This document shows, piece after piece, positions 1,860-44,647 of a stretch of 64,000 bases of DNA (position 1 is its first letter; every line of letters starts with the position of its first letter). A model generated the notes under the pieces. The model was not told where the DNA came from. It saw nothing but the letters and a program-made list of their open reading frames with translations, and did no database searches. Position numbers and translations under genes: made by a program. The stretch is from a bacterium (GTDB lineage Bacteria > Patescibacteriota > Patescibacteriia > JACPHY01), in contig JAUSKG010000021.1 of assembly GCA_030647005.1 (NCBI GenBank), positions 27,105 through 91,104 on the forward strand, in the 5' to 3' direction.

Positions 1860-2097
1860 CCCTTGGACTCTCGGGACTCGGAATACCTTGGCTTCTCTGG
1901 CCTTGGTACTTCCGGGTCCCGTTTCTTTTGCTACCATGGTGATGTGGGAGAGTACGCATATACGCTGCTGTCCACGGATAGCAGTCGCGGAAATCCTTTC
2001 GACACCTCGCATGGAGCAGCCAGAGTTCCATCATTGCCCGTGCGTAATGGAAGCGTGCGGAGCGAGGCGGTCGAGCACTCCGTGCGTTCCTTTGGAG

Positions 2098-2145
2098 ACA
2101 GCGGCCGACTCCAATCGCGCCTTCGCGCACTTCGCGTGGTGATCG
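2098..2145 (+). other. Duplicated fragment of rpsG 3' end (encodes ...[12 protein letters not shown] like the true S7 C-terminus at 6298-6343)
   Basis: 41/44 nt identity with 6301-6343 including stop codon; preceding ORF sequence is not S7-like. Confidence 0.6.
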
Positions 2146-2158
2146 CACTCGTTGGCTA

Positions 2159-2956
2159 GTGCCTATGGTCAATCAACAACTGCTTGAGTATATCAAGCAA
2201 TCAATACAACAGGGGGTGAGTCGTGAGCAGATCAAAAGCACGCTTATGGCGAACGGGTGGCAAGCGCAGGACGTTGAAGAAGGATGGAATAACGTTCATG
2301 CTCCCAGCGTGTCGCGTGCGCATTCGGTAGCCCCCATGAGCACATCAAGCAATACACTGAAAGTGATTGTAGGCATTATGACGGGCATCGTTGTTGTAGG
2401 CGGTGGAACGTATGTGGTCAGTCAAACAATTTTTAAGTCAGAAAAAATGTCCGACGTTTCTCCTGTCGTTGCGCAGCAGCTACCAACCGAAACACCTTTC
2501 GCAATACCCATCCCTCCTCCACCATCTGAACCAGCACCAACTCCTCCTCAACCATCTGAACCAATACCCACGCAAGTGACATCGCAAAATCCTGAGGTGG
2601 TCTTTGCTGATGCATTGCGTTCTTGTACAAAGCATCGCATGACATTTGAACACCCCTTTACGGGAGAAATGTTAGAAAAAGAAATTTTGGGATTCATGAA
2701 CGAAACGTGCAATTATACTGAGCAAATGCCGAATGGCGGAAAAATGGAGTGTCAATATTCCGAGAGCGAGAGGATTGCTGTCGCTCAATATTACAGAGAC
2801 GTTGCAATAGCGGAATCTGTTGGTACAAGTTTGCGTGCTGATCTCGGAAGCGGTGAACAGCAAACGACCTATACTATCAATGGCAAGGTGGTTGATAATC
2901 CCCTGCAAGAAGCAATGGATAGCGGTGCTTGCGTGATCTCGGGTTACGAAAGTTAA
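2159..2956 (+). CDS. hypothetical single-pass membrane protein, Pro-rich linker, Cys-containing extracytoplasmic domain; low-GC gene
   Basis: ~45% GC vs ~65% flanks; cytoplasmic N-domain, TM (IVGIMTGIVVVGGG), PPPPSEPAPTPPQPSEP linker; GTG 2159 or ATG 2165. Confidence 0.6.
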   Translation: MPMVNQQLLEYIKQSIQQGVSREQIKSTLMANGWQAQDVEEGWNNVHAPSVSRAHSVAPMSTSSNTLKVIVGIMTGIVVVGGGTYVVSQTIFKSEKMSDVSPVVAQQLPTETPFAIPIPPPPSEPAPTPPQPSEPIPTQVTSQNPEVVFADALRSCTKHRMTFEHPFTGEMLEKEILGFMNETCNYTEQMPNGGKMECQYSESERIAVAQYYRDVAIAESVGTSLRADLGSGEQQTTYTINGKVVDNPLQEAMDSGACVISGYES

Positions 2957-2960
2957 TATC

Positions 2961-3569
2961 TTGCTTATGAGGATTGTGCAAGAGCATCCGTCGGTCATGA
3001 TCCTGAAAGATAGCAATGTCATTGCCTTTGCTGCTGGAACATTTTTTCTTTTGGTCGGCATTATCGTGATTGTTGAACCAGATCTTTTTACAAACCAACC
3101 TCCTTTTTGGTTGGGATTTGTTTTCATGCTTTTTGGTGGCGGTATGGTCGTTGGGGGAAAAATAATTACGGTGTATCTTGATAAATCGGCGAATAAGCTC
3201 ATTTTTGTGCAAAAGGGACTGAGTGGACGTAAGCGCAAGGAGTACGATCTCAGTCAAATAAAAGAAGTAGAATTATCCGTAGCATACAATGCTGCAAGCA
3301 AGAGCAAGGGCGGCGGACATTCTTATCACGTCGCATTTGTATGCAAGAGCGGCGAAATAATCCAGCTCAATCCCGGTCATGCGTCTGTCCGAAGATTCAT
3401 GGGACGACAGATCATTCCAGAAAAAATCCTTGGTGTAAGGATTGCCGCCTTTTTAGGTGTTCCATTTCAAGAAAGACGACCCCCGACCGTGCAGGAGACC
3501 TTATCAGCCGTCACTTCTGCAATACAGAACGTGGCCGAGCAAGAGGTGACACAACGAAAAACGTTGTGA
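2961..3569 (+). CDS. hypothetical membrane protein, two N-terminal TM helices plus possible bacterial PH-like domain; low-GC gene
   Basis: Low GC, tightly linked to 2159..2956 (5-nt gap); hydrophobic segments FAAGTFFLLVGIIVIV and FWLGFVFMLFGGGMVVGG; PH-like call is weak. Confidence 0.55.
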   Translation: MLMRIVQEHPSVMILKDSNVIAFAAGTFFLLVGIIVIVEPDLFTNQPPFWLGFVFMLFGGGMVVGGKIITVYLDKSANKLIFVQKGLSGRKRKEYDLSQIKEVELSVAYNAASKSKGGGHSYHVAFVCKSGEIIQLNPGHASVRRFMGRQIIPEKILGVRIAAFLGVPFQERRPPTVQETLSAVTSAIQNVAEQEVTQRKTL

Positions 3570-3732
3570 TGTTTGATTGACAGCGGCGCGCGGGAAGCTG
3601 GTAGGCATGTCGAGATGTCCTATTGTTTTGCTTCGACATGTTGACGAAAAACGGCGAGCTCGATTACGCTGGAGAGAGGATCGTGCGCTACGGGAAGCGT
3701 AGGCGCGTTTTTCGTTCTTTCACCCGAGACGT

Positions 3733-4323
3733 GTGGAGGATTCCGTGCAAGAGCATGCTGATGGGAAGCGGAAGCGTGTACCGGTACCAATGCGCGTTGG
3801 GAAGATGCTCACCCTCGTGAACGTGACGTACCAGCGAAGCTGGGATGCGGGCGCGGGTGTGTACCAGTCGCGTGCGGTCGTCGTGCTCCACATGGTTGGA
3901 CACGAGGATATGCTCTGTCACGGGATCGGCAGAGCACCTGCGGGGACGATCACCGCCATCGAACTCGCGCTGCGCGATGCGATCAGCAGAGCCAGTGACA
4001 TCGCGGTGCCACCCCCCGAGCTCCTCGCGTTCGAGATTCACGTCGCGTCCGGCAACACCGAGCCGAGTGCTCCGGCGAACGCGACTGCGGAGGTGAGCGT
4101 GGCGGGCTGCAAGCGGCGCGTGCAGATTGACCACCCCGACGGTGCGACCGCTGGCGCACTCCTCCTTTTCGATGTCTACGATCTCCACCTCTTCGAGCGC
4201 TGGAGTACCCTCCTCAAGGGCGCGCACGTCGATCCCCATGAGGTCCTCGAGCGTGTTCGTACGTATCGCAACCGTCCCGTCGCCGGAGATGGGGTGGGGT
4301 TCCCATCCTCCGACCCTCCGTGA
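3733..4323 (+). CDS. hypothetical protein; start uncertain (GTG 3733/3745 with SD ggagga, or ATG 3790)
   Basis: High-GC ORF followed by a clear hairpin terminator; the overlapping minus ORF 3688..4506 is Arg/Ser-rich antisense-like and was rejected. Confidence 0.4.
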   Translation: MEDSVQEHADGKRKRVPVPMRVGKMLTLVNVTYQRSWDAGAGVYQSRAVVVLHMVGHEDMLCHGIGRAPAGTITAIELALRDAISRASDIAVPPPELLAFEIHVASGNTEPSAPANATAEVSVAGCKRRVQIDHPDGATAGALLLFDVYDLHLFERWSTLLKGAHVDPHEVLERVRTYRNRPVAGDGVGFPSSDPP

Positions 4324-25914: not shown

Positions 25915-27285
25915 ATGCAAGAAACACTTCGCATCGTTGACGTGCCGCAGCAGGTTGGCACAGACGTGACCATTGCCGGTCGGGTCGCATCGCGGCGGGA
26001 CATGGGGAAGATCGTCTTCCTCGACGTTCGCGATCGGTACGGGCTTCTCCAGGTTGTCCTGACACCGGACGTCCCCGTCGAGGATCGCCACGCGCCCCAC
26101 CCGAGCGTTCCCGGGACACCGGTAACGCAGAAGGATGTGCGCGAGGGCTCCTACGTCCGCATCACCGGACGCGTGAAGCAGCGCGGTGAGAAGTACGTGA
26201 ACCCGAACATCGCGACGGGCACCGTGGAGATGGAGGCGGGTCAGATCACGATCATCGCCACATCGCAACCCTTCCCCTTCGATCCCCAGGACGATCTCCA
26301 CATCGACACGTACCTCGATCACCTCCCATTCACGCTCCGTACCGACCGCGGGCGCGCGATCTTCCGCGTGCAGGCCGCTATCGTCGAGGGCTTCCGAAGC
26401 GCGCTCACGAAGCGCGGCTTCACGGAGTTCCACGCGCCGAGCATCGTCGGCGGCTCCACGGAGGGCGGGGCGAACGTCTTCACCATTGACTACTTTGGCA
26501 AGCCCGCGTTCCTCGCGCAGTCCCCGCAGTTCTACAAGCAGATCATGGTCGGCATCTTCGAACGCGCCTTCACCGTCGCCACCGCGTTCCGCGCCGAGCT
26601 CCACGCGACGAGTCGTCACCTCAACGAGTACTGCTCGCTCGACTTTGAGTTTGGCCCCATCACCGACCACCGCGATGTCATGCGCATGCAGAACGACATG
26701 CTCATTGATCTCGTCGCACACGTGCGCGCGGTCTGTGCGGACGAGATCGCCGTGCTCGGTGCCACGCTGCCGGAGGTGCCACCGACCATCCCATCGCTCA
26801 AGCTCCGCGAGGCGCAGGAGGTGCTCAAACGCGAGTTCGGCATGGATTGCGTCGGCGAGCCGGACCTCGAGCCCGAGCACGAGCGCAAGCTCTGCGAGTG
26901 GTCCGCACGGGAGCACAGCTCGGACTTCCTCTACGTCACGCACTACCCCACAGCCAAGCGTCCGCTCTACACCATGCCCGACCCCGAGGACCCCGAGTTC
27001 ACACTCTCCTTTGATTTGCTCTTCCGCGGCGTCGAAATCACCACTGGCGGCCAGCGCATCCACGACTACGAAATGCTCAAAGGCAACATCGTGAAGTGGG
27101 GCCTCGATCCTGCTAAGTTCACCTACTACCTCGAGGCCTTCCAATACGGCATGCCCCCCGAAGGCGGCCTCGCCATCGGCCTCGAACGCCTCACCCAGAA
27201 GCTCCTCGGCCTCGACAACGTCAAACTCGCCACCCTCTTCCCGCGAGACATCGGGCGCATTGATGATCGGCTGTCGGCGGGATAG
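25915..27285 (+). CDS. class IIb aminoacyl-tRNA synthetase, archaeal-type AspRS or AsnRS (456 aa)
   Basis: QSPQFYKQ, FRAE (motif 2), GGLAIGLERL (motif 3), N-terminal OB fold; Asp vs Asn not resolvable by eye. Confidence 0.85.
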   Translation: MQETLRIVDVPQQVGTDVTIAGRVASRRDMGKIVFLDVRDRYGLLQVVLTPDVPVEDRHAPHPSVPGTPVTQKDVREGSYVRITGRVKQRGEKYVNPNIATGTVEMEAGQITIIATSQPFPFDPQDDLHIDTYLDHLPFTLRTDRGRAIFRVQAAIVEGFRSALTKRGFTEFHAPSIVGGSTEGGANVFTIDYFGKPAFLAQSPQFYKQIMVGIFERAFTVATAFRAELHATSRHLNEYCSLDFEFGPITDHRDVMRMQNDMLIDLVAHVRAVCADEIAVLGATLPEVPPTIPSLKLREAQEVLKREFGMDCVGEPDLEPEHERKLCEWSAREHSSDFLYVTHYPTAKRPLYTMPDPEDPEFTLSFDLLFRGVEITTGGQRIHDYEMLKGNIVKWGLDPAKFTYYLEAFQYGMPPEGGLAIGLERLTQKLLGLDNVKLATLFPRDIGRIDDRLSAG

Positions 27286-27317
27286 TGTGTTCGTTCAGGA
27301 GAACATGCAATCACTCT

Positions 27318-27938
27318 ATGGTTATTACTGATCCGCCATCAAACGAAGGGGTTATGGTTCAGCGTGGTTGGGGATGGGTGCTCGCGTCTAGCGATAACGT
27401 CCCTCACGATCCCAGTGAGCATTGTCCAACACGGGATGTGTTTACGGGTCGGTTAGATCATGCCCGCATTCTTCTCGAGCGAGCACCAAAATTTCAGATG
27501 ATAGCATCGGAGCTCATCGCTGCGGTCGGAGAGATTGGGAACAACACGTTTGATCACAACATTGGACAGTGGCGAGATGTTCCAGGGTGTTGGTTCGGGT
27601 GGATGCTTGGAGATGGACATTGGACAGCGGTGATCGCCGATCGCGGCCAGGGTATTCTTGCAACATTGCGTCGTATTCGGCCGGAGCTCCATGATGATAT
27701 GGAGGCGCTTCGTGTTGCGTTCCGCGAGGTGATTTCTGGACGATCTCCCGAGCAGCGGGGGAATGGATTGAAGTTTGTTGCATCCGTCATCGGGCAACGC
27801 GGGGATCGGCAGCTTGAATTTCATTCTGGAGCAGCACAAGTCGTTCTGACATCTCCTAGAAAAGGACGGCACGAGGAATGGTCTCCATCTGTACGGGTGC
27901 TCCCGGGAACCCTTGCCATCCTTTCGGTTATGGTGTAG
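27318..27938 (+). CDS. minimal GHKL-superfamily ATPase, RsbW/SpoIIAB (anti-sigma serine kinase)-like
   Basis: N-box EIGNNTFDH, G1 VIADRGQGI (DxGxG), G2 GRSPEQRGNGLKFV; gene lies at edge of low-GC island; start ATG 27318 (alt GTG 27285). Confidence 0.7.
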   Translation: MVITDPPSNEGVMVQRGWGWVLASSDNVPHDPSEHCPTRDVFTGRLDHARILLERAPKFQMIASELIAAVGEIGNNTFDHNIGQWRDVPGCWFGWMLGDGHWTAVIADRGQGILATLRRIRPELHDDMEALRVAFREVISGRSPEQRGNGLKFVASVIGQRGDRQLEFHSGAAQVVLTSPRKGRHEEWSPSVRVLPGTLAILSVMV

Positions 27939-27953
27939 TATTTTGGTACAACT

Positions 27954-28244
27954 ATGAGAATTGCATTGAGTAAATTTGGGCCCATGTTGGTCTCCCGTCC
28001 CGCAGGTCGTGATGCCCTGTTGATTGCTTCTGCATACCTTACGCCCGTATCGGAAACCGAGTCGATCGAGATCGATTTTACCGGCGTGCATGTACTCACT
28101 CCCTCATGGGCAGACGAGTTTGTTACCGGACTCCGTAAGAAATACGGAGATCGGCTCGTGTTGCTTCCCTCCGATAATGTTTCCGTAAAGCTTACCCTTG
28201 CAACGATCGGTCAATCTCCGAAAACCGGACCTGACGCGGTTTGA
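27954..28244 (+). CDS. small STAS-like protein, DUF4325-type (96 aa)
   Basis: ...SIEIDFTGVHVLTPSWADEFVTGL... pattern of the STAS-like DUF4325 family (assignment from memory, not searched); 16 nt after the ATPase. Confidence 0.6.
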   Translation: MRIALSKFGPMLVSRPAGRDALLIASAYLTPVSETESIEIDFTGVHVLTPSWADEFVTGLRKKYGDRLVLLPSDNVSVKLTLATIGQSPKTGPDAV

Positions 28245-28254
28245 CACGTTCTGT

Positions 28255-28360
28255 GGAAAAAATCGGACCTGACACGATTACCTCTCACCATCTCGTTTTC
28301 ATAGCCCTCCCACACACGGCTGGGCGTTAGAAAAAAATCGGACCTGACACGATTACCGTT
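28255..28360 (+). repeat. Two direct copies of gaaaaaatcggacctgacacgattacc (GACACGATT family)
   Basis: Exact 27-mer at ~28255 and ~28331. Confidence 0.7.
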
Positions 28361-28389
28361 TGCTCGTCGAGAATTTAAAATAGAAACGT

Positions 28390-28584
28390 ATGCTGGACCT
28401 CAAACGCACTCTACTTGCAAAGGAGTTATTTCTGGCTGCCATTATCTTCTATGCCATGGCATGGTTGATCGGAGGTATTTTTGGAGACGCGCTGAAGCTA
28501 ATAGGGTTCATTGCCCTGGCCATGGCAATTATTGCTGCGATTCGTGAAGTCAGGAGAGAGGCAGCAGACAAATCAAAAAAATAA
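28390..28584 (+). CDS. hypothetical 64-aa protein with two TM helices and charged C-terminus
   Basis: MLDLKRTLLAKELFLAAIIFYAMAWLIGGIF...IGFIALAMAIIAAIREVRREAADKSKK; low-GC island. Confidence 0.45.
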   Translation: MLDLKRTLLAKELFLAAIIFYAMAWLIGGIFGDALKLIGFIALAMAIIAAIREVRREAADKSKK

Positions 28585-28602
28585 GGTAAATATAGATAGG
28601 AT

Positions 28603-28836
28603 AATGGTAGGATAATGGTGTCAGGTCTGATTGTCCGTTAAAAAGCGGACCCGACACGATTACTCTTGGGCGGTGGCGGATGTGACGCCGTGATATGATG
28701 ACCGCATGAAACCGGCACAGAGCAACATCGCTCACCTCGACGGCGCGAACGGAACGGAAGGTGCGAGCGATGGGAAAAAGAATCAGACCTGACATCATCA
28801 TCCTTGCTTTCTTCCGCTTGACACCATTATCCTCCA
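28603..28836. mobile_element. ~230-bp GC-rich insert bounded by inverted repeats (aggataatggtgtcaggtctgatt ... aatcagacctgac ... ttgacaccattatcct)
   Basis: Inverted 13-16-mers read directly; internal segment ~62% GC inside ~35% GC surroundings. Confidence 0.4.
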
Positions 28837-28844
28837 CTAAAAAT

Positions 28845-29417
28845 ATGGATAAACTAGAAAATATTTTTATTGGTTTTAGAAATAGTTCATTTGATGAAAT
28901 AATCAAGTTAAATCTTAACCACACTATTTCAAACAAGGAAAAACTAATTTTTAGAACTATTTTTGAAAATTCTGCAAATTTAATTGCTTCGTTTATCAAA
29001 GAAATAAAAGCAAGTAAGTCAATAGAGGAAAAAGATTTTGACTGGATGATGCTACTTTATGTTTTTGTTTGTGTTCAAGAACTTCATGACATACTAGATC
29101 GGGTAGAGAAAACAGACGATGCTCATATAAAAAATACACTGGATGTTAATAAACAAGATTTGATAAATCATCTTAAGAAAATATTAGGTGGTAAAGATAT
29201 GGGTAGTGTTGTGGATAAAACGTTTAATCACATAGAATCTTCTGATAAGGAATCGGGTAATTACAATGAATTTGTTGTTGGAAGAACTTATGTAATTTTT
29301 AGTATGTTAAAAGAAAATCAAGTTAATATTGAAAATATGTCAAGTGAAAAATTACTACAAATTTCAGAAGAAAATTATAAAAATAGTATAGTAAATTTTG
29401 TAAAGATTTGTGTCTAG
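28845..29417 (+). CDS. hypothetical protein, very low GC (~28%), 190 aa
   Basis: ATG 28845 (track ORF starts 28761); Lys/Asn/Ile-rich; no recognisable domain. Confidence 0.5.
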   Translation: MDKLENIFIGFRNSSFDEIIKLNLNHTISNKEKLIFRTIFENSANLIASFIKEIKASKSIEEKDFDWMMLLYVFVCVQELHDILDRVEKTDDAHIKNTLDVNKQDLINHLKKILGGKDMGSVVDKTFNHIESSDKESGNYNEFVVGRTYVIFSMLKENQVNIENMSSEKLLQISEENYKNSIVNFVKICV

Positions 29418-29526
29418 TAAAGAGAGCAAGGTAGAAAAAGGGAAAAAGGAAAGGGGAGATAAAGAGAGATAAAGTGAAAAAATGGACTTGACCCCTTTCT
29501 TGTCTTTCTTGCATTTGCTGCTTTCT

Positions 29527-29583
29527 TGACACTATAAAATCGGACTTGACACGATTTCCGTGGACATGACACGATTTCCGACA
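29527..29583 (+). repeat. Three tandem GACACGATTTCC copies (GACACGATT family)
   Basis: aaaatcggacttgacacgatttccgtggacatgacacgatttccgacacgatttcc immediately upstream of ATG 29594. Confidence 0.7.
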
Positions 29584-29593
29584 CGATTTCCAT

Positions 29594-29899
29594 ATGTGGG
29601 AGGATCTCGACAAAAAAGAAAAAGGGGAAGTCGTGAATTTGGGACTGGCTATTTTGGTCGGCTTGCTTTTCTTGACATATTTTATTCGGGGCGTGAGAGA
29701 TGCTCCTCATGTAGCTGACTACCGTGAGCAATTCAGTGACTGTATGGAGGGTGCAAAGAATGGTCAGGAGCGCTATTTTTGTAAGGAGCATTTTGGTGAA
29801 CCAATGCTTTGGTTACAATTCAAGGAATGCAAGAAGGACCAAAAAAATAAAGTATGTAAAAAAATATTAAATGAACAGCTAATGGATCTTTACAAATAA
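29594..29899 (+). CDS. hypothetical 101-aa protein, N-terminal TM anchor, Cys-rich ectodomain
   Basis: VVNLGLAILVGLLFLTYFI then CMEGAKNGQERYFCKEHF...KECKKDQKNKVCKK. Confidence 0.5.
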   Translation: MWEDLDKKEKGEVVNLGLAILVGLLFLTYFIRGVRDAPHVADYREQFSDCMEGAKNGQERYFCKEHFGEPMLWLQFKECKKDQKNKVCKKILNEQLMDLYK

Positions 29900-29902
29900 T
29901 TT

Positions 29903-29965
29903 GCAGAAATCGTGTCAATGCAGAAATCGTGCGAAAAACCGTGTGCCAAATCGTGTCAGGTCTGC
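29903..29965 (-). repeat. Three inverted-orientation copies of the GACACGATT motif
   Basis: cagaaatcgtgtcaatgcagaaatcgtgcgaaaaaccgtgtgccaaatcgtgtcaggtctg. Confidence 0.65.
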
Positions 29966-29977
29966 TCTGTTAATAAA

Positions 29978-30110
29978 GGGGTCAAGTCCATTTCTTCGAT
30001 GATGACGGCTATAGGGAGCACGAGGTGATCGAGTGCACAGATAAAGGGGTCAAGTCCATTTATTTGACGATGACGGCTATAGGGAGCACGAGGTGATCGA
30101 GTTTGGCCCA
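29978..30110 (+). repeat. Two tandem ~68-bp units (ataaaggggtcaagtccattt...gatgacggctatagggagcacgaggtgatcgagt) plus partial third
   Basis: Near-identical units at 29978-30045 and 30046-30113. Confidence 0.7.
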
Positions 30111-30197
30111 TTTCCCTTTCATAGAGGGAATACGAAGTGATCCAGAGCACTGCTTGGGGGGGGGTAGAGAAGGGTTGATCGAACGCGGCGTGCCGTC

Positions 30198-30659
30198 TCA
30201 TTGCATCGAGCAGAGGGTTGAGAAATCCGAGACCGAGAGCTCCGGGATTGGCGATGTCGTAATGGCAGCGCAATGACGCTTGTCCCTCGTGAAGCGTGCG
30301 AGGTAGAAGGAGCAGCTCCCGCGCTCGCCGTCGTTTTGTTGCTGTGCACACGTTTGCACGGCGTTGGCAGCGTCATTGAGGTCGCAGCGTTCCTCGATAT
30401 CCGCTGGACATGGTGCGTTGACGCAGACAAGTTGGTGTTCCACAGCGCTGTAGGAGCCGTTGAGTTTTCGACACCACTCCTCGGTGCGGCCGGTGACCTC
30501 GTACTGTCGCGCTGCCTGGGCAGGATCATCTGGCCATGCGGCATCATATGCCGCTCGACGTTGATCATCCGCTGCACGCCGCGCAACTGCCATGACAACG
30601 ATCGCGACAACAAGCGCAGCAATGGCGAGGAGTGCGATAGTTTGGTTGCGACGCGACAT
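30198..30659 (-). CDS. hypothetical secreted/membrane-anchored Cys-rich protein (153 aa)
   Basis: N-terminal TM IALLAIAALVVAIVVMAV; 10 Cys; overlapping + ORFs judged spurious. Confidence 0.55.
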   Translation of the reverse strand: MSRRNQTIALLAIAALVVAIVVMAVARRAADDQRRAAYDAAWPDDPAQAARQYEVTGRTEEWCRKLNGSYSAVEHQLVCVNAPCPADIEERCDLNDAANAVQTCAQQQNDGERGSCSFYLARFTRDKRHCAAITTSPIPELSVSDFSTLCSMQ

Positions 30660-30732
30660 ACGAGCTGGTGAGGGCCGATGCTTGAGTTTAGTTTCTTATC
30701 CCGTTCAGTATAGCACGAAAATCGAAGGTGGA

Positions 30733-30822
30733 TAAAGGGGTCAAGTCCATTTCTTTGACGATGGCGGCTATAGGGAGCACGAGGTGATCCAGTGAAAAAT
30801 GGACTTGACCCCTTTCTCCTTT
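30733..30822. mobile_element. MITE-like ~90-bp element with perfect 19-bp terminal inverted repeats (aaaggggtcaagtccattt / aaatggacttgacccctttc)
   Basis: Same internal sequence as the 29978 tandem units; solo right-end copies at ~29468-29496 and ~30823-30850. Confidence 0.6.
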
Positions 30823-30917
30823 CTTTCCGACATTGACCCCTTTCTTTCCGACAGCATCTGGACGCGGTGCTGCTCGTGTGCCATACTGCATGGAGGTCTT
30901 TAGACAAGGAGGAGCTC

Positions 30918-31154
30918 GTGGGAAGAATGATGTACAGGGTGCTTGGTATCTCGGGCGCGATGCTTTCGCTCGCGCATGCTGATCCCGGACTCGTGGCTGC
31001 GGATCCCCATATGAGGGTCAGTCCGGCGAGCCAGTGGATGTTCTTCGCCCTCCTCGTCGCAGTGCTGGCCTTCGTCGCGTTCGTCGAGTACGTTTGCGAA
31101 CGTCTCTCGTACTGGTGGGCGGGTCGCAGTCGCGCAGGCCATCGCCAGGCGTGA
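30918..31154 (+). CDS. small membrane protein upstream of P-type ATPase (signal peptide + TM)
   Basis: SD aaggagga then GTG 30918/ATG 30927; MMYRVLGISGAMLSLAHA...FFALLVAVLAFVAFVEYV. Confidence 0.45.
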   Translation: MGRMMYRVLGISGAMLSLAHADPGLVAADPHMRVSPASQWMFFALLVAVLAFVAFVEYVCERLSYWWAGRSRAGHRQA

Positions 31155-31226
31155 GCAACATCGCGCAGCACCCCGCTCCTCATCGGAGTGGGGTTTTTCG
31201 TTGTGGGTTTGGTACGATAGAGGACT

Positions 31227-33812: not shown

Positions 33813-34303
33813 ATCACCCCAATCCCTACGCGTGCATTGTGGCCAAGCTCGAACGTGCAGGTGTGACGTTCAAGCAGCACGAGCACGCGCCGGTGCGCAC
33901 CTCGCAGGAGGCCGCAACGATCCGTGGTACGAGCATTGAAGAAGGTGCGAAGGCACTCGTGTGTCATGTGGATAAGTCACGCTACGTGCTCGCGGTGCTC
34001 TCCGCCGCGTTCCAGGCGGACCTCCCCGCCCTCCGGCGGAAGCTCGGGGCGAAGAAGCTCGCACTCGCGTCGCCAGAGGAGGTGCTGCGGGAGACGGGGT
34101 GCGAGGTGGGTGGCGTGCCACCGTTCGGTTCGTGTATCGGTCTCATGACGTACTGTGACCCCTCACTCCGCGCGCACGAGCATATCTCCTTCAACGCCGG
34201 CCTCCGGACGCACTCCATCGTCATGCGTTTTGTGGATTACCTCGCCATTGAACAGCCCACCGTCACTCCATTCGCCAAACAGGTGCCTGGCGCGGTACAA
34301 TAG
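33809..34303 (+). CDS. YbaK/ProX-family aminoacyl-tRNA deacylase
   Basis: ...ETGCEVGGVPPFG... signature of YbaK/ProX editing domain; ATGA overlap with ATPase stop. Confidence 0.8.
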   Translation: MNHPNPYACIVAKLERAGVTFKQHEHAPVRTSQEAATIRGTSIEEGAKALVCHVDKSRYVLAVLSAAFQADLPALRRKLGAKKLALASPEEVLRETGCEVGGVPPFGSCIGLMTYCDPSLRAHEHISFNAGLRTHSIVMRFVDYLAIEQPTVTPFAKQVPGAVQ

Positions 34304-34327
34304 AGTCCAGTTCTTCTCCCACCATCT

Positions 34328-34921
34328 ATGATCTCCAAACGTCTTCTCAATCACCTCGATAAGCGGGGTATCGCCTATGCGGTTGTGCCGCACCGGAAGG
34401 TCTTCACCGCGTTTGATCTGGCGCAGACCTTGGATGCGGATCCCAAGCACGTCGCGAAGACCGTCCTCGTCCGCGCGGATCGTGACCTCGTGCTCGTGAG
34501 TGTTCCGGCACACAGTCGGTTGGACTTCGCGCGGATGAAGAAGGTGCTCGGCGCGAAGCAGGTGACGCTCGCGTCGGAGCGGGCGATGGAGCAGCTGAAG
34601 ATCAAGGAGGGGACGACACCACCGTTCGCATCGTTCTTCAAGATCGCCTGCGTGCTCGACAGCGGATTGGCGAAGTGCAAGACGATGCTCTGCCGATCTG
34701 GCAGTCACACGGAATCGCTCGACTGCTCCGTTGCGAACTACATTGCGAGCGAGGAACCGACGATTGCGAAAGTGAGCGAGCGCGCGAAGCGAGCACCGGC
34801 GAAGCGGCGTGCGCCTGTAAAAGCGAAGCGTGCACCGGCGAAAGCGAAGCGGACGACCGCGAAGCGTCCCACGAAGCGGAAGGCGGTCCGCAGGAAGCCC
34901 GCAGCGCGGAAGCGGTCGTAG
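34328..34921 (+). CDS. divergent YbaK/ProX-like deacylase with C-terminal Lys/Arg/Ala-rich (KAKRAPA-repeat) tail
   Basis: Parallel architecture to 33809..34303 (…IKEGTTPPFASFF…), then RAKRAPAKRRAPVKAKRAPAKAKRTTAKRPTKRKAVRRKPAARKRS. Confidence 0.65.
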   Translation: MISKRLLNHLDKRGIAYAVVPHRKVFTAFDLAQTLDADPKHVAKTVLVRADRDLVLVSVPAHSRLDFARMKKVLGAKQVTLASERAMEQLKIKEGTTPPFASFFKIACVLDSGLAKCKTMLCRSGSHTESLDCSVANYIASEEPTIAKVSERAKRAPAKRRAPVKAKRAPAKAKRTTAKRPTKRKAVRRKPAARKRS

Positions 34922-34933
34922 TACGCGGGACGC

Positions 34934-35641
34934 ATGCGCCCCGCGCTCCAGCCATTCGACGGGCCGCTCGACCTCCTCCTGCGCCTCATTGAGCAGGAGG
35001 AGCTCGACATCACCACCGTGGCGCTCGCTGGGGTGTGCGAGTCGTACCTCGCGCACCTCAAGCAGGTGGAGCAACGGACGCCGGAAGCCGTGGCGGATTT
35101 CCTCGTCATTGCGGCGAAGCTCCTCTACCTCAAGTCGCTCGTCCTCCTGCCCGAGGCGGAGGGCGACGCGGAGGAGGACGAGACGGGACTCGCGGCGCAG
35201 CTCCGCATCTACCGCGCGTTCGCGGAGGCGGCAACGGGTATCGCCGAGCAGTTCAGCGTGTCTCCACGGATGCACCCGAGCGCGCGGGTGCCGGTGATCG
35301 TACCATCATTTCTCCCGCCGAAGCGCGTTGACCTCGCAATGCTCGGGCAGGTCATGGTGCACCTCATCGCGGAGCTCGAGCCCATCGTGCGGATCCCGAA
35401 GGCGACGATCGGTCGCACCATCTCCATTGAGGATCGCATTGCAGAGTTGCGGGCGCTCGTCGCGGCGCGTTCCCGCGTGACACTCCACGACGTGCTCCGC
35501 GGGCGAACGGGACGTCGGGAACAGATCGTCTCGTTCCTCGCGGTTCTTGAGCTCGTCCGGCAGCAGGAGGTTGTCGCAATCCAGTCCTCGCAGTTCTCCC
35601 CGATTGCCATCGAGCGTTCCTCGGATGGACGCTCGCGTTGA
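34934..35641 (+). CDS. scpA: segregation and condensation protein A
   Basis: MRPALQPFDGPLDLLLRLIEQEELDITTVALAGVCESYL... Confidence 0.85.
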   Translation: MRPALQPFDGPLDLLLRLIEQEELDITTVALAGVCESYLAHLKQVEQRTPEAVADFLVIAAKLLYLKSLVLLPEAEGDAEEDETGLAAQLRIYRAFAEAATGIAEQFSVSPRMHPSARVPVIVPSFLPPKRVDLAMLGQVMVHLIAELEPIVRIPKATIGRTISIEDRIAELRALVAARSRVTLHDVLRGRTGRREQIVSFLAVLELVRQQEVVAIQSSQFSPIAIERSSDGRSR

Positions 35642-35643
35642 AC

Positions 35644-36258
35644 ATGGCCATAGCTATGTCGAAAGATACCGCACCCACCATTGACCTCCACCGCGCGCTC
35701 GAGACCATCCTCTTCCTGTCCGGCAAGCCGCTCACGATGAAGAAGATCGCGGTGCTCCTCGGGAGCGATCTCCAGACCGCACGGGATGCCGTCGCTGCGT
35801 TCCAGACGACATGGAATGCGCGCGGCGGTGGAACGATGGTCGCGGCGACGGAGGAGCAAGTGCAGCTCGTCTCCCACCCGGATTGCCAGGCCATCGCGGA
35901 GACGATAGCGAGCGACGAGGTGCGCGGTGAGCTCACCCGTCCGCAGCTCGAAGCGCTCACGGTCGTCGCGTACCGCGGCCCGATCACGAAGGCGGAGCTC
36001 GAGCACATCCGCGGTGTCCACTGCGGACTCATCATCCGAAACCTCCTCATGCGCGGACTCATCGTGAGCGCGCGCGATCGCGCACGTGGCGAGGATATCT
36101 TCACGGTGTCGATGGATTTCCTCCGTCACCTCGGCATCGCGGATCTCCGCGAGCTCACGGACTACGAGCGGCTCCACAACGACGCGATCATCCGCGAGTA
36201 CCTCGCCATGGCGCACGGCGAGGAGGGCGGTGAAGTGGTCGCGGCACCGCCGGTCTGA
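35644..36258 (+). CDS. scpB: segregation and condensation protein B
   Basis: ScpB winged-helix pattern; follows scpA with overlap. Confidence 0.85.
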   Translation: MAIAMSKDTAPTIDLHRALETILFLSGKPLTMKKIAVLLGSDLQTARDAVAAFQTTWNARGGGTMVAATEEQVQLVSHPDCQAIAETIASDEVRGELTRPQLEALTVVAYRGPITKAELEHIRGVHCGLIIRNLLMRGLIVSARDRARGEDIFTVSMDFLRHLGIADLRELTDYERLHNDAIIREYLAMAHGEEGGEVVAAPPV

Positions 36259-38433: not shown

Positions 38434-38507
38434 AGCGGGGTGGAGCAGTTTGGCAGCTCGCCAGGCCCATAACCTGGAGGTCGTCGGTTCAAATCCGACC
38501 CCCGCCA
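38434..38507 (+). tRNA. initiator tRNA-Met (CAT); no encoded CCA
   Basis: Acceptor, D and T arms nearly identical to E. coli tRNA-fMet (GCGGGGTGGAGCAG...GGTCGTCGGTTCAAATCCG); 1:72 A-C mismatch; anticodon loop cCCATAA. Confidence 0.85.
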
Positions 38508-38584
38508 TGAAAAGTGCCCCACTTCGCGTGGGGTGTTTTTCGTTGTTGACGCACCATGTATCCTATGGCATCGTAAATGACTAC

Positions 38585-38656
38585 GGCGGGGTAGCTCAGT
38601 GGTAGAGCAGCGGACTCATAAGCCGTTGGTCGCGGGTTCAACCCCCGCCCCCGCTA
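38585..38656 (+). tRNA. tRNA with CAT anticodon (elongator Met or lysidine-dependent Ile)
   Basis: ggcgggg acceptor, D-arm tagctcagtggtagagca, loop ctCATaa, T-arm gcgggttcaaccccc. Confidence 0.8.
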
Positions 38657-39365: not shown

Positions 39366-39449
39366 TGCCGCGGGAGGGGATCGAACCCTCATGACCTTGC
39401 GGCCACAGGAGTTTGAGTCCTGCGCGTCTGCCGGTTCCGCCACCGCGGC
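39366..39449 (-). tRNA. tRNA-Leu (CAA), type II with long variable arm
   Basis: Reverse complement: gccgcggtggcggaaccggcagacgcgcaggactCAAactcctgtggccgcaaggtcatgagggttcgatcccctcccgcggca. Confidence 0.85.
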
Positions 39450-44135: not shown

Positions 44136-44647
44136 CGTTTTCTCCTCTCGATCGTGGCACGTTCCTTCGTGTCGATGAGTGTGCGCGGATCCTTTGCCCT
44201 GTTCGTTGGTCGGGTTGTGAAGGTACGGTGCGCACCATGTTTTTCTTCCGCACGTTCTCCCTCCAGTGGGATGACTTACGTCATTTGTTTGTTTGAAGTA
44301 TAGCTCAATCCAGACGCCTGTCAAGTATGCGCAAAAAATGTCGTGACTCCTGTCGTATCGCTCCATAGTGGGGAGGTAATCGCCTGAAATAACCGTGTGA
44401 ATGCTCAGGGATATGCAAGAGTGCTTGACGGGGTCAAGACCCCCCCCTGCATGGAAGGGGTCTGACCCCGTGGGACTTAACCCCCATTATCCGTTCGTCG
44501 AGGCGCGCACCACCTCGCGCAAGCGTCCTAGCGGCTACACGAAACTTTTTATGGGAACGGGAGTGGTTTTCACGTTGTTGCTTGACGCAGTATCGGGGGG
44601 GTACTGTGGAAGTGTCATGGGGCGTATTCATCAACATGGAGGGATCT

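Follow-up and report, generated by a model that had tools for sequence, protein, structure and literature searches.

TIRtrons are elements in which terminal inverted repeats (TIRs) with the consensus GGGGWSAS flank TIRYT transposase genes, the TIRs being found as single, dimeric and clustered copies (Di Nocera et al. 2013, PMC3733652). Among the Y1 HUH transposases, subclass 2.1 carries Bac_DnaA_C or helix-turn-helix (HTH) domains at the C-terminus (Quentin et al. 2018, PMC6006769). DUF4325 genes, for their part, also occur coupled with a group of VapC-like PIN proteins (PMC5499597). Repeats resembling such TIRs, and a DUF4325 gene, are present in the low-GC DNA that follows aspS in a 64,000-nucleotide stretch of a bacterial contig (assembly GCA_030647005.1, contig JAUSKG010000021.1, positions 27,105 to 91,104), which we call the window and whose coordinates we use throughout. 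We think it likely that positions 27286 to about 30860 are a mosaic accessory islet, built in at least three steps at a break of synteny between aspS and tRNA_edit-scpA-scpB, and not one system. Its first layer would be a GHKL-DUF4325 module that recurrently lands 3' of aspS; the second would be the next 2.6 kb, strewn with non-autonomous derivatives of Y1 (HUH) TIRYT or 'TIRtron' elements; and the third would be four tiny membrane, Cys-rich or unknown genes that lie among the clusters of repeats and were either acquired one by one or evolve rapidly. That the islet DNA is non-essential is probably why the transposon ends have been retained.

The repeats that define the second layer occupy almost every intergenic gap of the islet from 28.22 to 30.85 kb. 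Family A is AAAAATCGGACCTGACACGATTACC, accompanied by sub-repeats of GACACGATTTCC and an A-type motif, TCGGACYTGACACGATT; family B is AAAAATGGACTTGACCCCTTT, with extended units of 63 nt. An earlier interpretation made from the DNA letters and their open reading frames (ORFs), hereafter the sequence-only reading, had recognised two repeat families and called them unrelated. Two families do exist, but they are related, sharing the core GGACYTGACMC, which is found eight times in 2.6 kb of the islet and nowhere in the other 61 kb (0.1 expected). All eight exact copies of GACACGATT fall within 28271-29957.

Family B matches the TIRs that flank Y1 transposase genes. Its exact 19-mer is present in 22 metagenome contigs with GC contents from 0.25 to 0.68, and in contig L089 it lies, base for base, inside 31-nt TIRs around a full-length Y1 transposase homologue (L089:121-1107). 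The L089 transposase is 36% identical to the protein of L086, Pfam-verified as Y1_Tnp plus Bac_DnaA_C. In seven of the 22 contigs a gene homologous to this transposase, or to its C-terminus of DnaA_C type, stands beside or near the 19-mer; L084, L086, L089, L096 and L098 show the 19-mer overlapping or abutting the 3' end of the stretch homologous to that C-terminus. In alignment, the 63-nt units of family B correspond to the left TIR of L089 and its promoter-proximal segment (AAAGGGGTCAAGTCCATT..TTGAC..GACGGC..TATA). The fit to GGGGWSAS is seven positions of eight for family B (GGGGTCAA), eight of eight for the variant in L095 (GGGGTCAG) and six of eight for family A (CGTGTCAG). The repeats do not point to a new system; in family B they prove to be the ends of a known kind of Y1-transposase element, with the architecture of TIRtrons and corresponding to Y1 HUH subclass 2.1.

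Shortened forms of the element connect the complete copy in L089 with what is left in the window. In an internally deleted TIRYT element of about 235 bp (L085:560-790), the left TIR, the promoter and the first ~30 codons run straight into the final ~20 codons with the right TIR; it is a clear intermediate between the full L089 element and the miniature element of the window, which measures 88 bp, with 19-nt perfect arms and a 44-nt spacer (DNA fold -25.8 kcal/mol, z = -7.4). TIR-spacer-TIR hairpins also occur in L095 and L099, that of L095 having the same architecture as the window's miniature element. The window copies comprise solo ends (29478, 29972), tandem units (29972, 30040) and dimers (28609-28664, 30731-30819), all of them intergenic, much as the singles, dimers and clusters of TIRtrons are. 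Unlike TIRtrons, they are concentrated in one 2.6-kb islet and not dispersed; one other GGGGTCA-type cluster lies in the window, in intergenic DNA at 44420-44490, with GGGGTCAAGACCCC, GGGGTCTGACCCC and GGGACTTAACCCC in inverted arrangement, perhaps related to the TIRYT-type repeats but of high GC. The host also differs, being a member of the Candidate Phyla Radiation (CPR); we found no paper on these repeats in CPR, though none was specifically sought. The hairpin-forming, non-autonomous dimers resemble REPINs with their RAYTs and the miniature inverted-repeat transposable elements (MITEs) of the IS200/IS605 type; they too presumably rely on a Y1 HUH enzyme acting in trans, and the internally deleted derivative at the related locus L085 offers a further likeness. 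REPINs differ in that the window units are terminal inverted repeats and not self-complementary REP hairpins, and the visible copy number here is small. By analogy, family A would be the same kind of element as family B, and a transposase encoded elsewhere would have to move these non-autonomous repeats.

Two further leads on a transposase were set aside. The 57-aa ORF that follows the B units ('MAHFPFIEG..') bears a by-eye likeness to a TIRYT N-terminus that is not significant. In L055, another CPR metagenome-assembled genome (MAG), a Y1 transposase lies beside trpS/aspS (L055:7700-8570) in a locus that contains a run of N; it is accompanied by a perfect palindrome, TTACTGGACATCCGATGTCCAGTAA, in at least five copies, of which one falls within the transposase gene itself. 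That palindrome is unrelated to the repeats of the window, and the motif match inside trpS is due to chance.

The first layer is the pair of genes that directly follows aspS, and here the sequence-only reading, which named a GHKL ATPase and a STAS-like protein, is confirmed for the first and agrees with a Pfam label for the second. On its AlphaFold2 model (pLDDT 91.6) the 206-aa protein has the GHKL fold: the top 50 Foldseek matches in the PDB are all GHKL ATPase domains (topoisomerase II/GyrB, PDK, Hsp90, Topo VI), with E-values down to 2e-5 and TM-scores of 0.35-0.42. The family alignment has GEIGNNxFDHN, ADRGQG and RGNGLKFV as invariant N, G1 and G2 boxes, and PF13581 (HATPase_c_2) is matched by 12 of 31 relatives (best E 1.8e-5). 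Homologues number more than 1,500, with annotation for hardly any; some carry N-terminal winged HTH (wHTH), MarR or MerR domains; the window protein has no HTH. The second protein is assigned to DUF4325 by Pfam, and its Ser51, in the motif PSxxDE, is invariant in seven sequences and a possible counterpart of the phosphoserine of SpoIIAA. PADLOC, NCBIfam and PHROGs returned nothing meaningful for the islet proteins (a single match, of the GHKL protein to phrog_3364, of unknown function), sequence-profile searches of the PDB with the GHKL and DUF4325 families gave nothing significant, and the GHKL protein had no match in plasmid and phage collections.

A small GHKL gene beside a STAS-like gene of ~95 aa recalls SpoIIAB-SpoIIAA and RsbW-RsbV, as do the HATPase_c_2 matches of the relatives and the D-F-x-G-V...P-S-x-x-D-E context of the partner's invariant Ser. 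The kinase gene comes first here, unlike in those pairs, and many relatives are HTH-fused. The DUF4325-PIN units provide the other comparison: there too DUF4325 is the smaller of two partners, the larger being an enzyme, and the two genes form a compact unit of sporadic distribution; one GHKL-DUF4325 pair stands among HEPN/MNT and AbiEii genes (L118). The partner is nevertheless a GHKL ATPase and not a PIN nuclease, and the pair is neither matched by PADLOC nor present in the plasmid and phage collections. We suggest that GHKL-DUF4325 is most likely an ATP-driven partner switch or a toxin/antitoxin-like pair, in which the GHKL protein would bind ATP and act on the invariant Ser51 of its STAS-like partner by kinase or partner-switch chemistry.

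The DUF4325 gene lies directly downstream of the GHKL gene, in the same order, in all nine contexts sampled, and in the eight outside the window the pair occurs without any other gene of the islet. The surroundings vary: besides L118, the pair is found after Wzy_C and beside a gene of an extracellular contractile injection system (eCIS). It therefore looks like a self-contained module, the sole part of the islet that resembles a candidate "system". Nor is it a one-off here, for the pair stands directly 3' of aspS in three of the nine contexts (the window, L115 and L120). L115 belongs to a distant CPR genome (GCA_041664845.1) whose RecO is 29% identical and whose aspS is of the bacterial (GAD-containing) type; the pair begins 47 nt past aspS (L115:2044-4862) in the order map-ruvX-recO-aspS-GHKL-DUF4325-...-tRNA_edit-scpA-scpB, the same frame as in the window. 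L120 (Logan SRR22387954) is the closer relative, its GHKL protein being 79% identical to ours, and it is the more instructive. Directly after the pair it retains the last 40 codons of aspS as a remnant of 126 nt, in frame and ending in a stop (L120:1493-1635). The functional copy of this 3' end, upstream on the same contig, shares only 74.6% identity with the remnant, a level typical of orthologues of different species. The remnant is an insertion scar, showing that the pair came into aspS along with a replacement 3' end of foreign origin.

The arrangement in L120, in which the pair separates a complete aspS from a displaced and diverged duplicate of its last 40 codons, resembles integration into gene 3' ends by islands of the tRNA/tmRNA type. 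It differs from them in having no integrase, and since the duplicate is 75% identical and not identical, homology-anchored recombination (Campbell-type or illegitimate) is suggested over site-specific integration. In an event of this type, foreign DNA carrying its own aspS 3' end and the pair would recombine into aspS, and the module probably spreads by recombination anchored in that conserved 3' end. In the window itself, no integrase domain was found in the islet ORFs scanned with Pfam. We considered whether the 3' end of aspS had been transferred together with the islet and rejected this because the GC content at third codon positions (GC3) of aspS stays native up to the stop. The GC3 of the pair, ~0.5 against 0.8 for the backbone, implies a fairly recent arrival here. 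The last ~9 codons and the stop of the DUF4325 gene are supplied by a degenerate family-A repeat (28219-28244); the DUF4325 homologue in L104, 91% identical, ends earlier and has no repeat-encoded tail. To our knowledge, no association of this uncharacterised GHKL-DUF4325 family with aspS has been reported before.

That the islet is foreign to its surroundings in composition had been proposed in the sequence-only reading, with sliding-window GC and tetranucleotide scores as the means of checking it, and both bear the proposal out. We scanned 1-kb windows against the DNA of the window outside the islet (GC 0.623 +/- 0.035). Composition is not uniform but descends in steps, from 0.51-0.55 past aspS (27.25-28.3 kb) through 0.45-0.49 (28.15-28.9 kb) to 0.27-0.31 (28.75-29.5 kb, minimum 27%), before rising to 0.36-0.44 (29.35-30.1 kb). 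The most deviant 1-kb window, 28751-29750, has a GC z of -8.2 and a tetranucleotide L1 z of +12.5. The left edge is abrupt, aspS keeping a GC3 of 0.82-0.90 up to its stop at 27285 and the next gene having 0.49, and it agrees with the edge first proposed. The right edge does not: at 30.1 kb, where GC had been said to recover, it reaches only 0.52-0.60 and sinks once more to 0.52 at 30.55-31.0 kb, and backbone GC is regained, and the repeats end, only at ~30,860 rather than at 30,110. The range of 35-48% GC also needs amending, since the first ~900 nt have ~52-54% and the minimum is 27%; the orphan put at 28% GC is indeed a low-GC gene, at 25.7%; and the third Cys-rich ORF (30198-30659) of the six listed lies beyond the end that had been proposed. 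The suspicion of more than one acquisition is upheld by at least three GC3 classes in the islet (0.48-0.51, 0.18 and 0.42, plus 0.62; backbone 0.76-0.84) and by ORF4, for which a low-GC CPR genome holds a donor-like homologue at the DNA level.

The position of the islet is variable among relatives. The aspS product is closest to proteins of Ca. Uhrbacteria MAGs (67-69% identity), and its other matches are nearly all from Patescibacteria/CPR MAGs, some with generic or evidently wrong NCBI labels; exact-sequence look-ups of the aspS and DUF4325 proteins, as delimited here, returned no record. Judged by these sequences, the host is a CPR bacterium, Ca. Uhrbacteria-like. The gene order is map, ruvX, recO, aspS, the islet, ORF7, a P-type ATPase gene, two tRNA_edit genes, scpA and scpB. 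The two nearest relatives, L002 and L003, are collinear with 16.0-27.3 kb of the window and diverge after aspS into unrelated genes (glyoxalase, Band_7, SNase, metK and others). In L004, tRNA_edit-scpA-scpB starts 54 nt past aspS, and in L005 and L007 scpA-scpB lie ~320-340 nt past it; L001 has two different genes, by eye MGMT-like and CFA-synthase-like, between aspS and tRNA_edit. Collinearity was established by tblastx with L001, L004, L005, L007 and L115. None of 80 related aspS loci carries the islet genes, so that the same genes are not a constant of this site, and none has a P-type ATPase at this position. The aspS-tRNA_edit-scpAB junction is thus a variable spot, a synteny break with differing cargo among relatives. 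The sequence-only reading had placed the islet between aspS and a P-type ATPase locus, but these two are not the native neighbours: relatives have tRNA_edit/scpA-scpB, other cargo or unrelated genes after aspS, so the ATPase is itself part of a variable segment from 27.3 to 33.8 kb, by synteny and not by composition.

The small genes of the third layer have separate histories. ORF4 has only seven homologues among 5.8 billion proteins, and its DNA is 86.5% identical over 28839-29423 to a 25.3%-GC gene of contigs L106-L113, which are CPR contigs of 36% GC from Hainich groundwater. The homology stops at most 6 nt from the ends of the ORF. This relative (86% identical, ~10001-10576 of L106-L113) abuts recG upstream, its end coordinate being the first base of recG, and it recurs in many samples in the same context beside NYN-domain genes, which suggests that it is native there and that the window copy was transferred. 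We take this to indicate a recent gene-sized transfer from a low-GC CPR lineage, with a GC content that has not yet drifted to that of the host. ORF5 retrieved itself and one weak match (28% identity, E = 2.5e-5) among 1.84 billion representatives, and ORF6 retrieved only itself among the 5.8 billion proteins. For ORF3, no family match was found in Pfam, NCBIfam, PADLOC or PHROGs; the large protein databases were not searched for it. The idea that six ORFs form one undescribed accessory system is not supported, only GHKL-DUF4325 being a conserved module, with no convincing homologue of ORF5 or ORF6 and just the seven of ORF4. These small ORFs may be without system-level function.

If the genes and repeats nevertheless formed one co-regulated accessory system, the A and B motifs would be operators or promoters through which a regulator, for example the GHKL protein, controlled small envelope proteins. 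The repeats do stand in nearly all intergenic gaps of the islet and nowhere else in the window, some relatives of the GHKL protein have N-terminal wHTH, MarR or MerR domains, the left end in L089 holds a promoter-like TTGACT-N-TATACC, so that copies could donate promoters, and inspection by eye places -10-like hexamers 26 nt downstream of the core motif in front of ORF3 and ORF6. A scan with promoter and terminator consensuses, however, found sites no more often than in shuffled sequence and is uninformative, the GHKL protein of the window has no HTH, and the repeats are inconsistently oriented relative to the genes, pointing inward on both flanks of ORF5. A B motif that is base-identical in contigs of 25-68% GC, as the end of transposase genes, is the signature of a mobile element and not of a lineage-specific operator. 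As the genes themselves have four compositions and separate phyletic patterns, we regard such a system as unlikely. The same compositions and patterns tell against a single foreign block from one donor with GC differences due to gene-specific constraints. Its sharp left border and the lack of the whole block from the 80 relatives sampled would fit, but neighbouring genes span GC3 values of 0.18 to 0.62, the GHKL pair travels alone in all eight other contexts, and the ORF4 homologue stands alone in an unrelated one; a single block is in our view highly improbable.

An assembly or binning chimera, in which low-GC pieces from another low-GC CPR genome of the same sample were joined at the repeats, would account for the extreme contrast of 25.7% GC inside a 62% genome and for the nearest relative of ORF4 being in a 36%-GC genome; TIR motifs common to very different genomes are also classic sites of mis-joining. 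The second assembler speaks against it. Logan contig L081 (run SRR13727527, k=31) is 100% identical to 27133-30030, bridging aspS into the low-GC DNA and on through GHKL and ORF4 to ORF5, and breaks only in the 58-nt tandem B repeat. The run is possibly the same read set as that of the MAG and so not fully independent evidence. The identical repeat stretches, at 19-28 nt, are nevertheless shorter than k, and only ORF4 itself resembles the low-GC genome, its flanking genes there (NYN, recG) being absent here. We therefore hold a chimera to be very unlikely. An integron-like cassette array, with a cluster of attC sites without integrase, the small ORFs as cassettes and the imperfect palindromes as attC sites, is suggested superficially by the alternation of short ORFs, differing in GC, with imperfect inverted repeats. 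By inspection, the outer ends of the palindromes lack the RYYYAAC and GTTRRRY core sites; repeats of either orientation occur on both flanks of the ORFs, ORF6 is encoded on the other strand, no integrase domain was seen in the islet ORFs scanned, and family B has been shown above to be the TIR of elements with a Y1 transposase. An array of this kind is barely credible. A bolder proposal of our own is that clusters of TIRYT-type repeats may serve as a gene-capture platform in CPR bacteria, with the function of an integron but driven by an unrelated kind of enzyme. Segments lying between converging ends would be cut out and inserted by a Y1 HUH transposase, ORF3, ORF5 and ORF6 would act as cassettes, and the transfer of ORF4 would be one such event. 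We think this quite improbable. A more modest conjecture is that the repeat clusters supply short homologies that help foreign fragments to integrate.

The mosaic islet described above, which we prefer to these alternatives, has observations of its own to contend with. No Y1 transposase gene or recognisable remnant of one was found by tblastn in the 64-kb window, which leaves the mobilisation of the repeats in trans unproven. No family-A repeat was found flanking a transposase; among 120 fetched loci family A appeared only as the window's own copy in L081, scans of viral contigs were negative for both families, and the assignment of family A comes from the shared 11-nt core and an arrangement like that of B. 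The repeats around ORF5 run in the order B, three A, ORF5, three to four A, two B, and by the polarity of L089 they point inward. ORF5 thus sits between converging element ends and not inside an element, which argues against simple carriage as cargo. As to the module, the GHKL protein of the window itself falls below Pfam thresholds (no match at E <= 0.1), and the STAS-likeness of DUF4325 is a Pfam label, its AlphaFold2 model having a pLDDT of 49.5 and its sequence no relative in the PDB. Neither a sigma factor nor a PP2C phosphatase gene, the further point of difference from the SpoIIAB and RsbW systems, lies beside the pair in the islet or in the sampled neighbourhoods. Finally, the window contains no second copy of the aspS 3' end like the remnant of L120, so that the mechanism deduced from L120 is not directly visible here.

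Table 1. Genes and repeats of the islet and its flanks, in window coordinates (TM, transmembrane; a dot marks features without a strand)
Feature	Position	Strand	Basis or remark
aspS, archaeal/ND-type AspRS, 456 aa	25915..27285	+	Pfam tRNA-synt_2 2.3e-69 and OB fold; left anchor
GHKL (Bergerat-fold) ATPase-like protein, 206 aa	27318..27938	+	Motifs, fold, Pfam of relatives; GC3 0.49
DUF4325 (STAS-like) protein, 96 aa	27954..28244	+	Pfam PF14213 5.6e-8
Two identical family-A repeats, 26 nt, AAAAAATCGGACCTGACACGATTACC	28257-28282, 28332-28357	+	Repeat search
ORF3, 64 aa, predicted two-helix membrane protein	28390..28584	+	ORF list; called on L081; GC3 0.48
Family-A inverted dimer, hairpin-forming, REPIN-like	Arms 28609-28632 (-), 28639-28664 (+)	.	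DNA fold -9.9 kcal/mol, z = -2.7
Degenerate family-A copy (28777-28802) and partial copy (28819-28833)	28777..28833	+	Just upstream of ORF4
ORF4, 190 aa, 25.7% GC	28845..29417	+	7 homologues among 5.8 billion proteins
Family-B solo right-end repeat, AAAAATGGACTTGACCCCTTTCT	29478..29500	+	Contained 19-mer is right TIR of TIRYT element in L089
Three tandem family-A sub-repeats (..GACACGATTTCC)	29534..29596	+	Directly upstream of ORF5
ORF5, 101 aa, N-terminal TM helix, 4 Cys	29594..29899	+	GC3 0.42; nested inverted A/B repeats on both sides
Three to four family-A sub-repeats, opposite orientation	29905..29971	-	Directly downstream of ORF5
Family-B left-end units, two tandem of 63 nt (29972-30034, 30040-30102) and partial third (30122-30145)	29972..30145	+	
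ORF6, 153 aa, N-terminal TM helix, many Cys	30198..30659	-	GC3 0.62; orphan
Miniature element, 63-nt B left end fused to B right end (30795-30817)	30731..30819	.	
Two direct repeats, 15 nt, CCTTTCTTTCCGACA	30818..30853	+	Last repeats before backbone GC
ORF7, small predicted membrane protein	30928..31154	+	Native-like GC; one weak NCBIfam match only
P-type cation ATPase, 861 aa	31227..33812	+	Pfam E1-E2_ATPase and related domains; GC3 0.80, native-like
tRNA_edit (two), scpA, scpB	33848..36258	+	Pfam; conserved right-hand aspS neighbours in relatives

Some features of the surroundings (Table 1) deserve mention in their own right. The codon-position GC of ORF7 is odd (GC2 0.74, above GC1 at 0.50), leaving its reading frame or coding status uncertain, and a strong terminator-like hairpin follows it at 31170-31194. 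The tRNA_edit (YbaK-like) genes are tandem paralogues (33848-34303 and 34328-34921), where relatives show one. No tRNA gene adjoins the islet, the nearest being at 8-83 and from 38434 onward; the window has a tRNA-Pro at 8-83, two tRNA-Met (CAT) ~80 nt apart at 38434-38656 and a tRNA-Leu at 39366-39449. Rfam gave no match at E <= 1 over 26.5-32 kb. A second stretch of deviant composition lies at 2000-4000 (GC 0.45, z = -4.8; tetranucleotide z = +6.5), with ORFs at 2159-2956 and 2961-3569 that have no convincing Pfam match; it contains no copy of the islet repeat core.

What had appeared as an "unknown foreign island" is resolved into three tractable pieces. The kinds of thing present are known (a genomic islet, TIRYT-type repeats, a GHKL and STAS-like pair), the specific instances are new, and no major concept is changed. 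The aspS-tRNA_edit-scpAB junction is documented as a hot spot in CPR genomes whose cargo varies between relatives. GHKL-DUF4325 emerges as a large uncharacterised family of more than 1,500 proteins that is found repeatedly 3' of aspS, in one relative with an insertion scar. TIRYT/TIRtron-type ends are found as MITE-like fragments in a CPR genome, and the family-B TIR, conserved base for base at 25-68% GC, provides a marker for tracking these little-studied elements.

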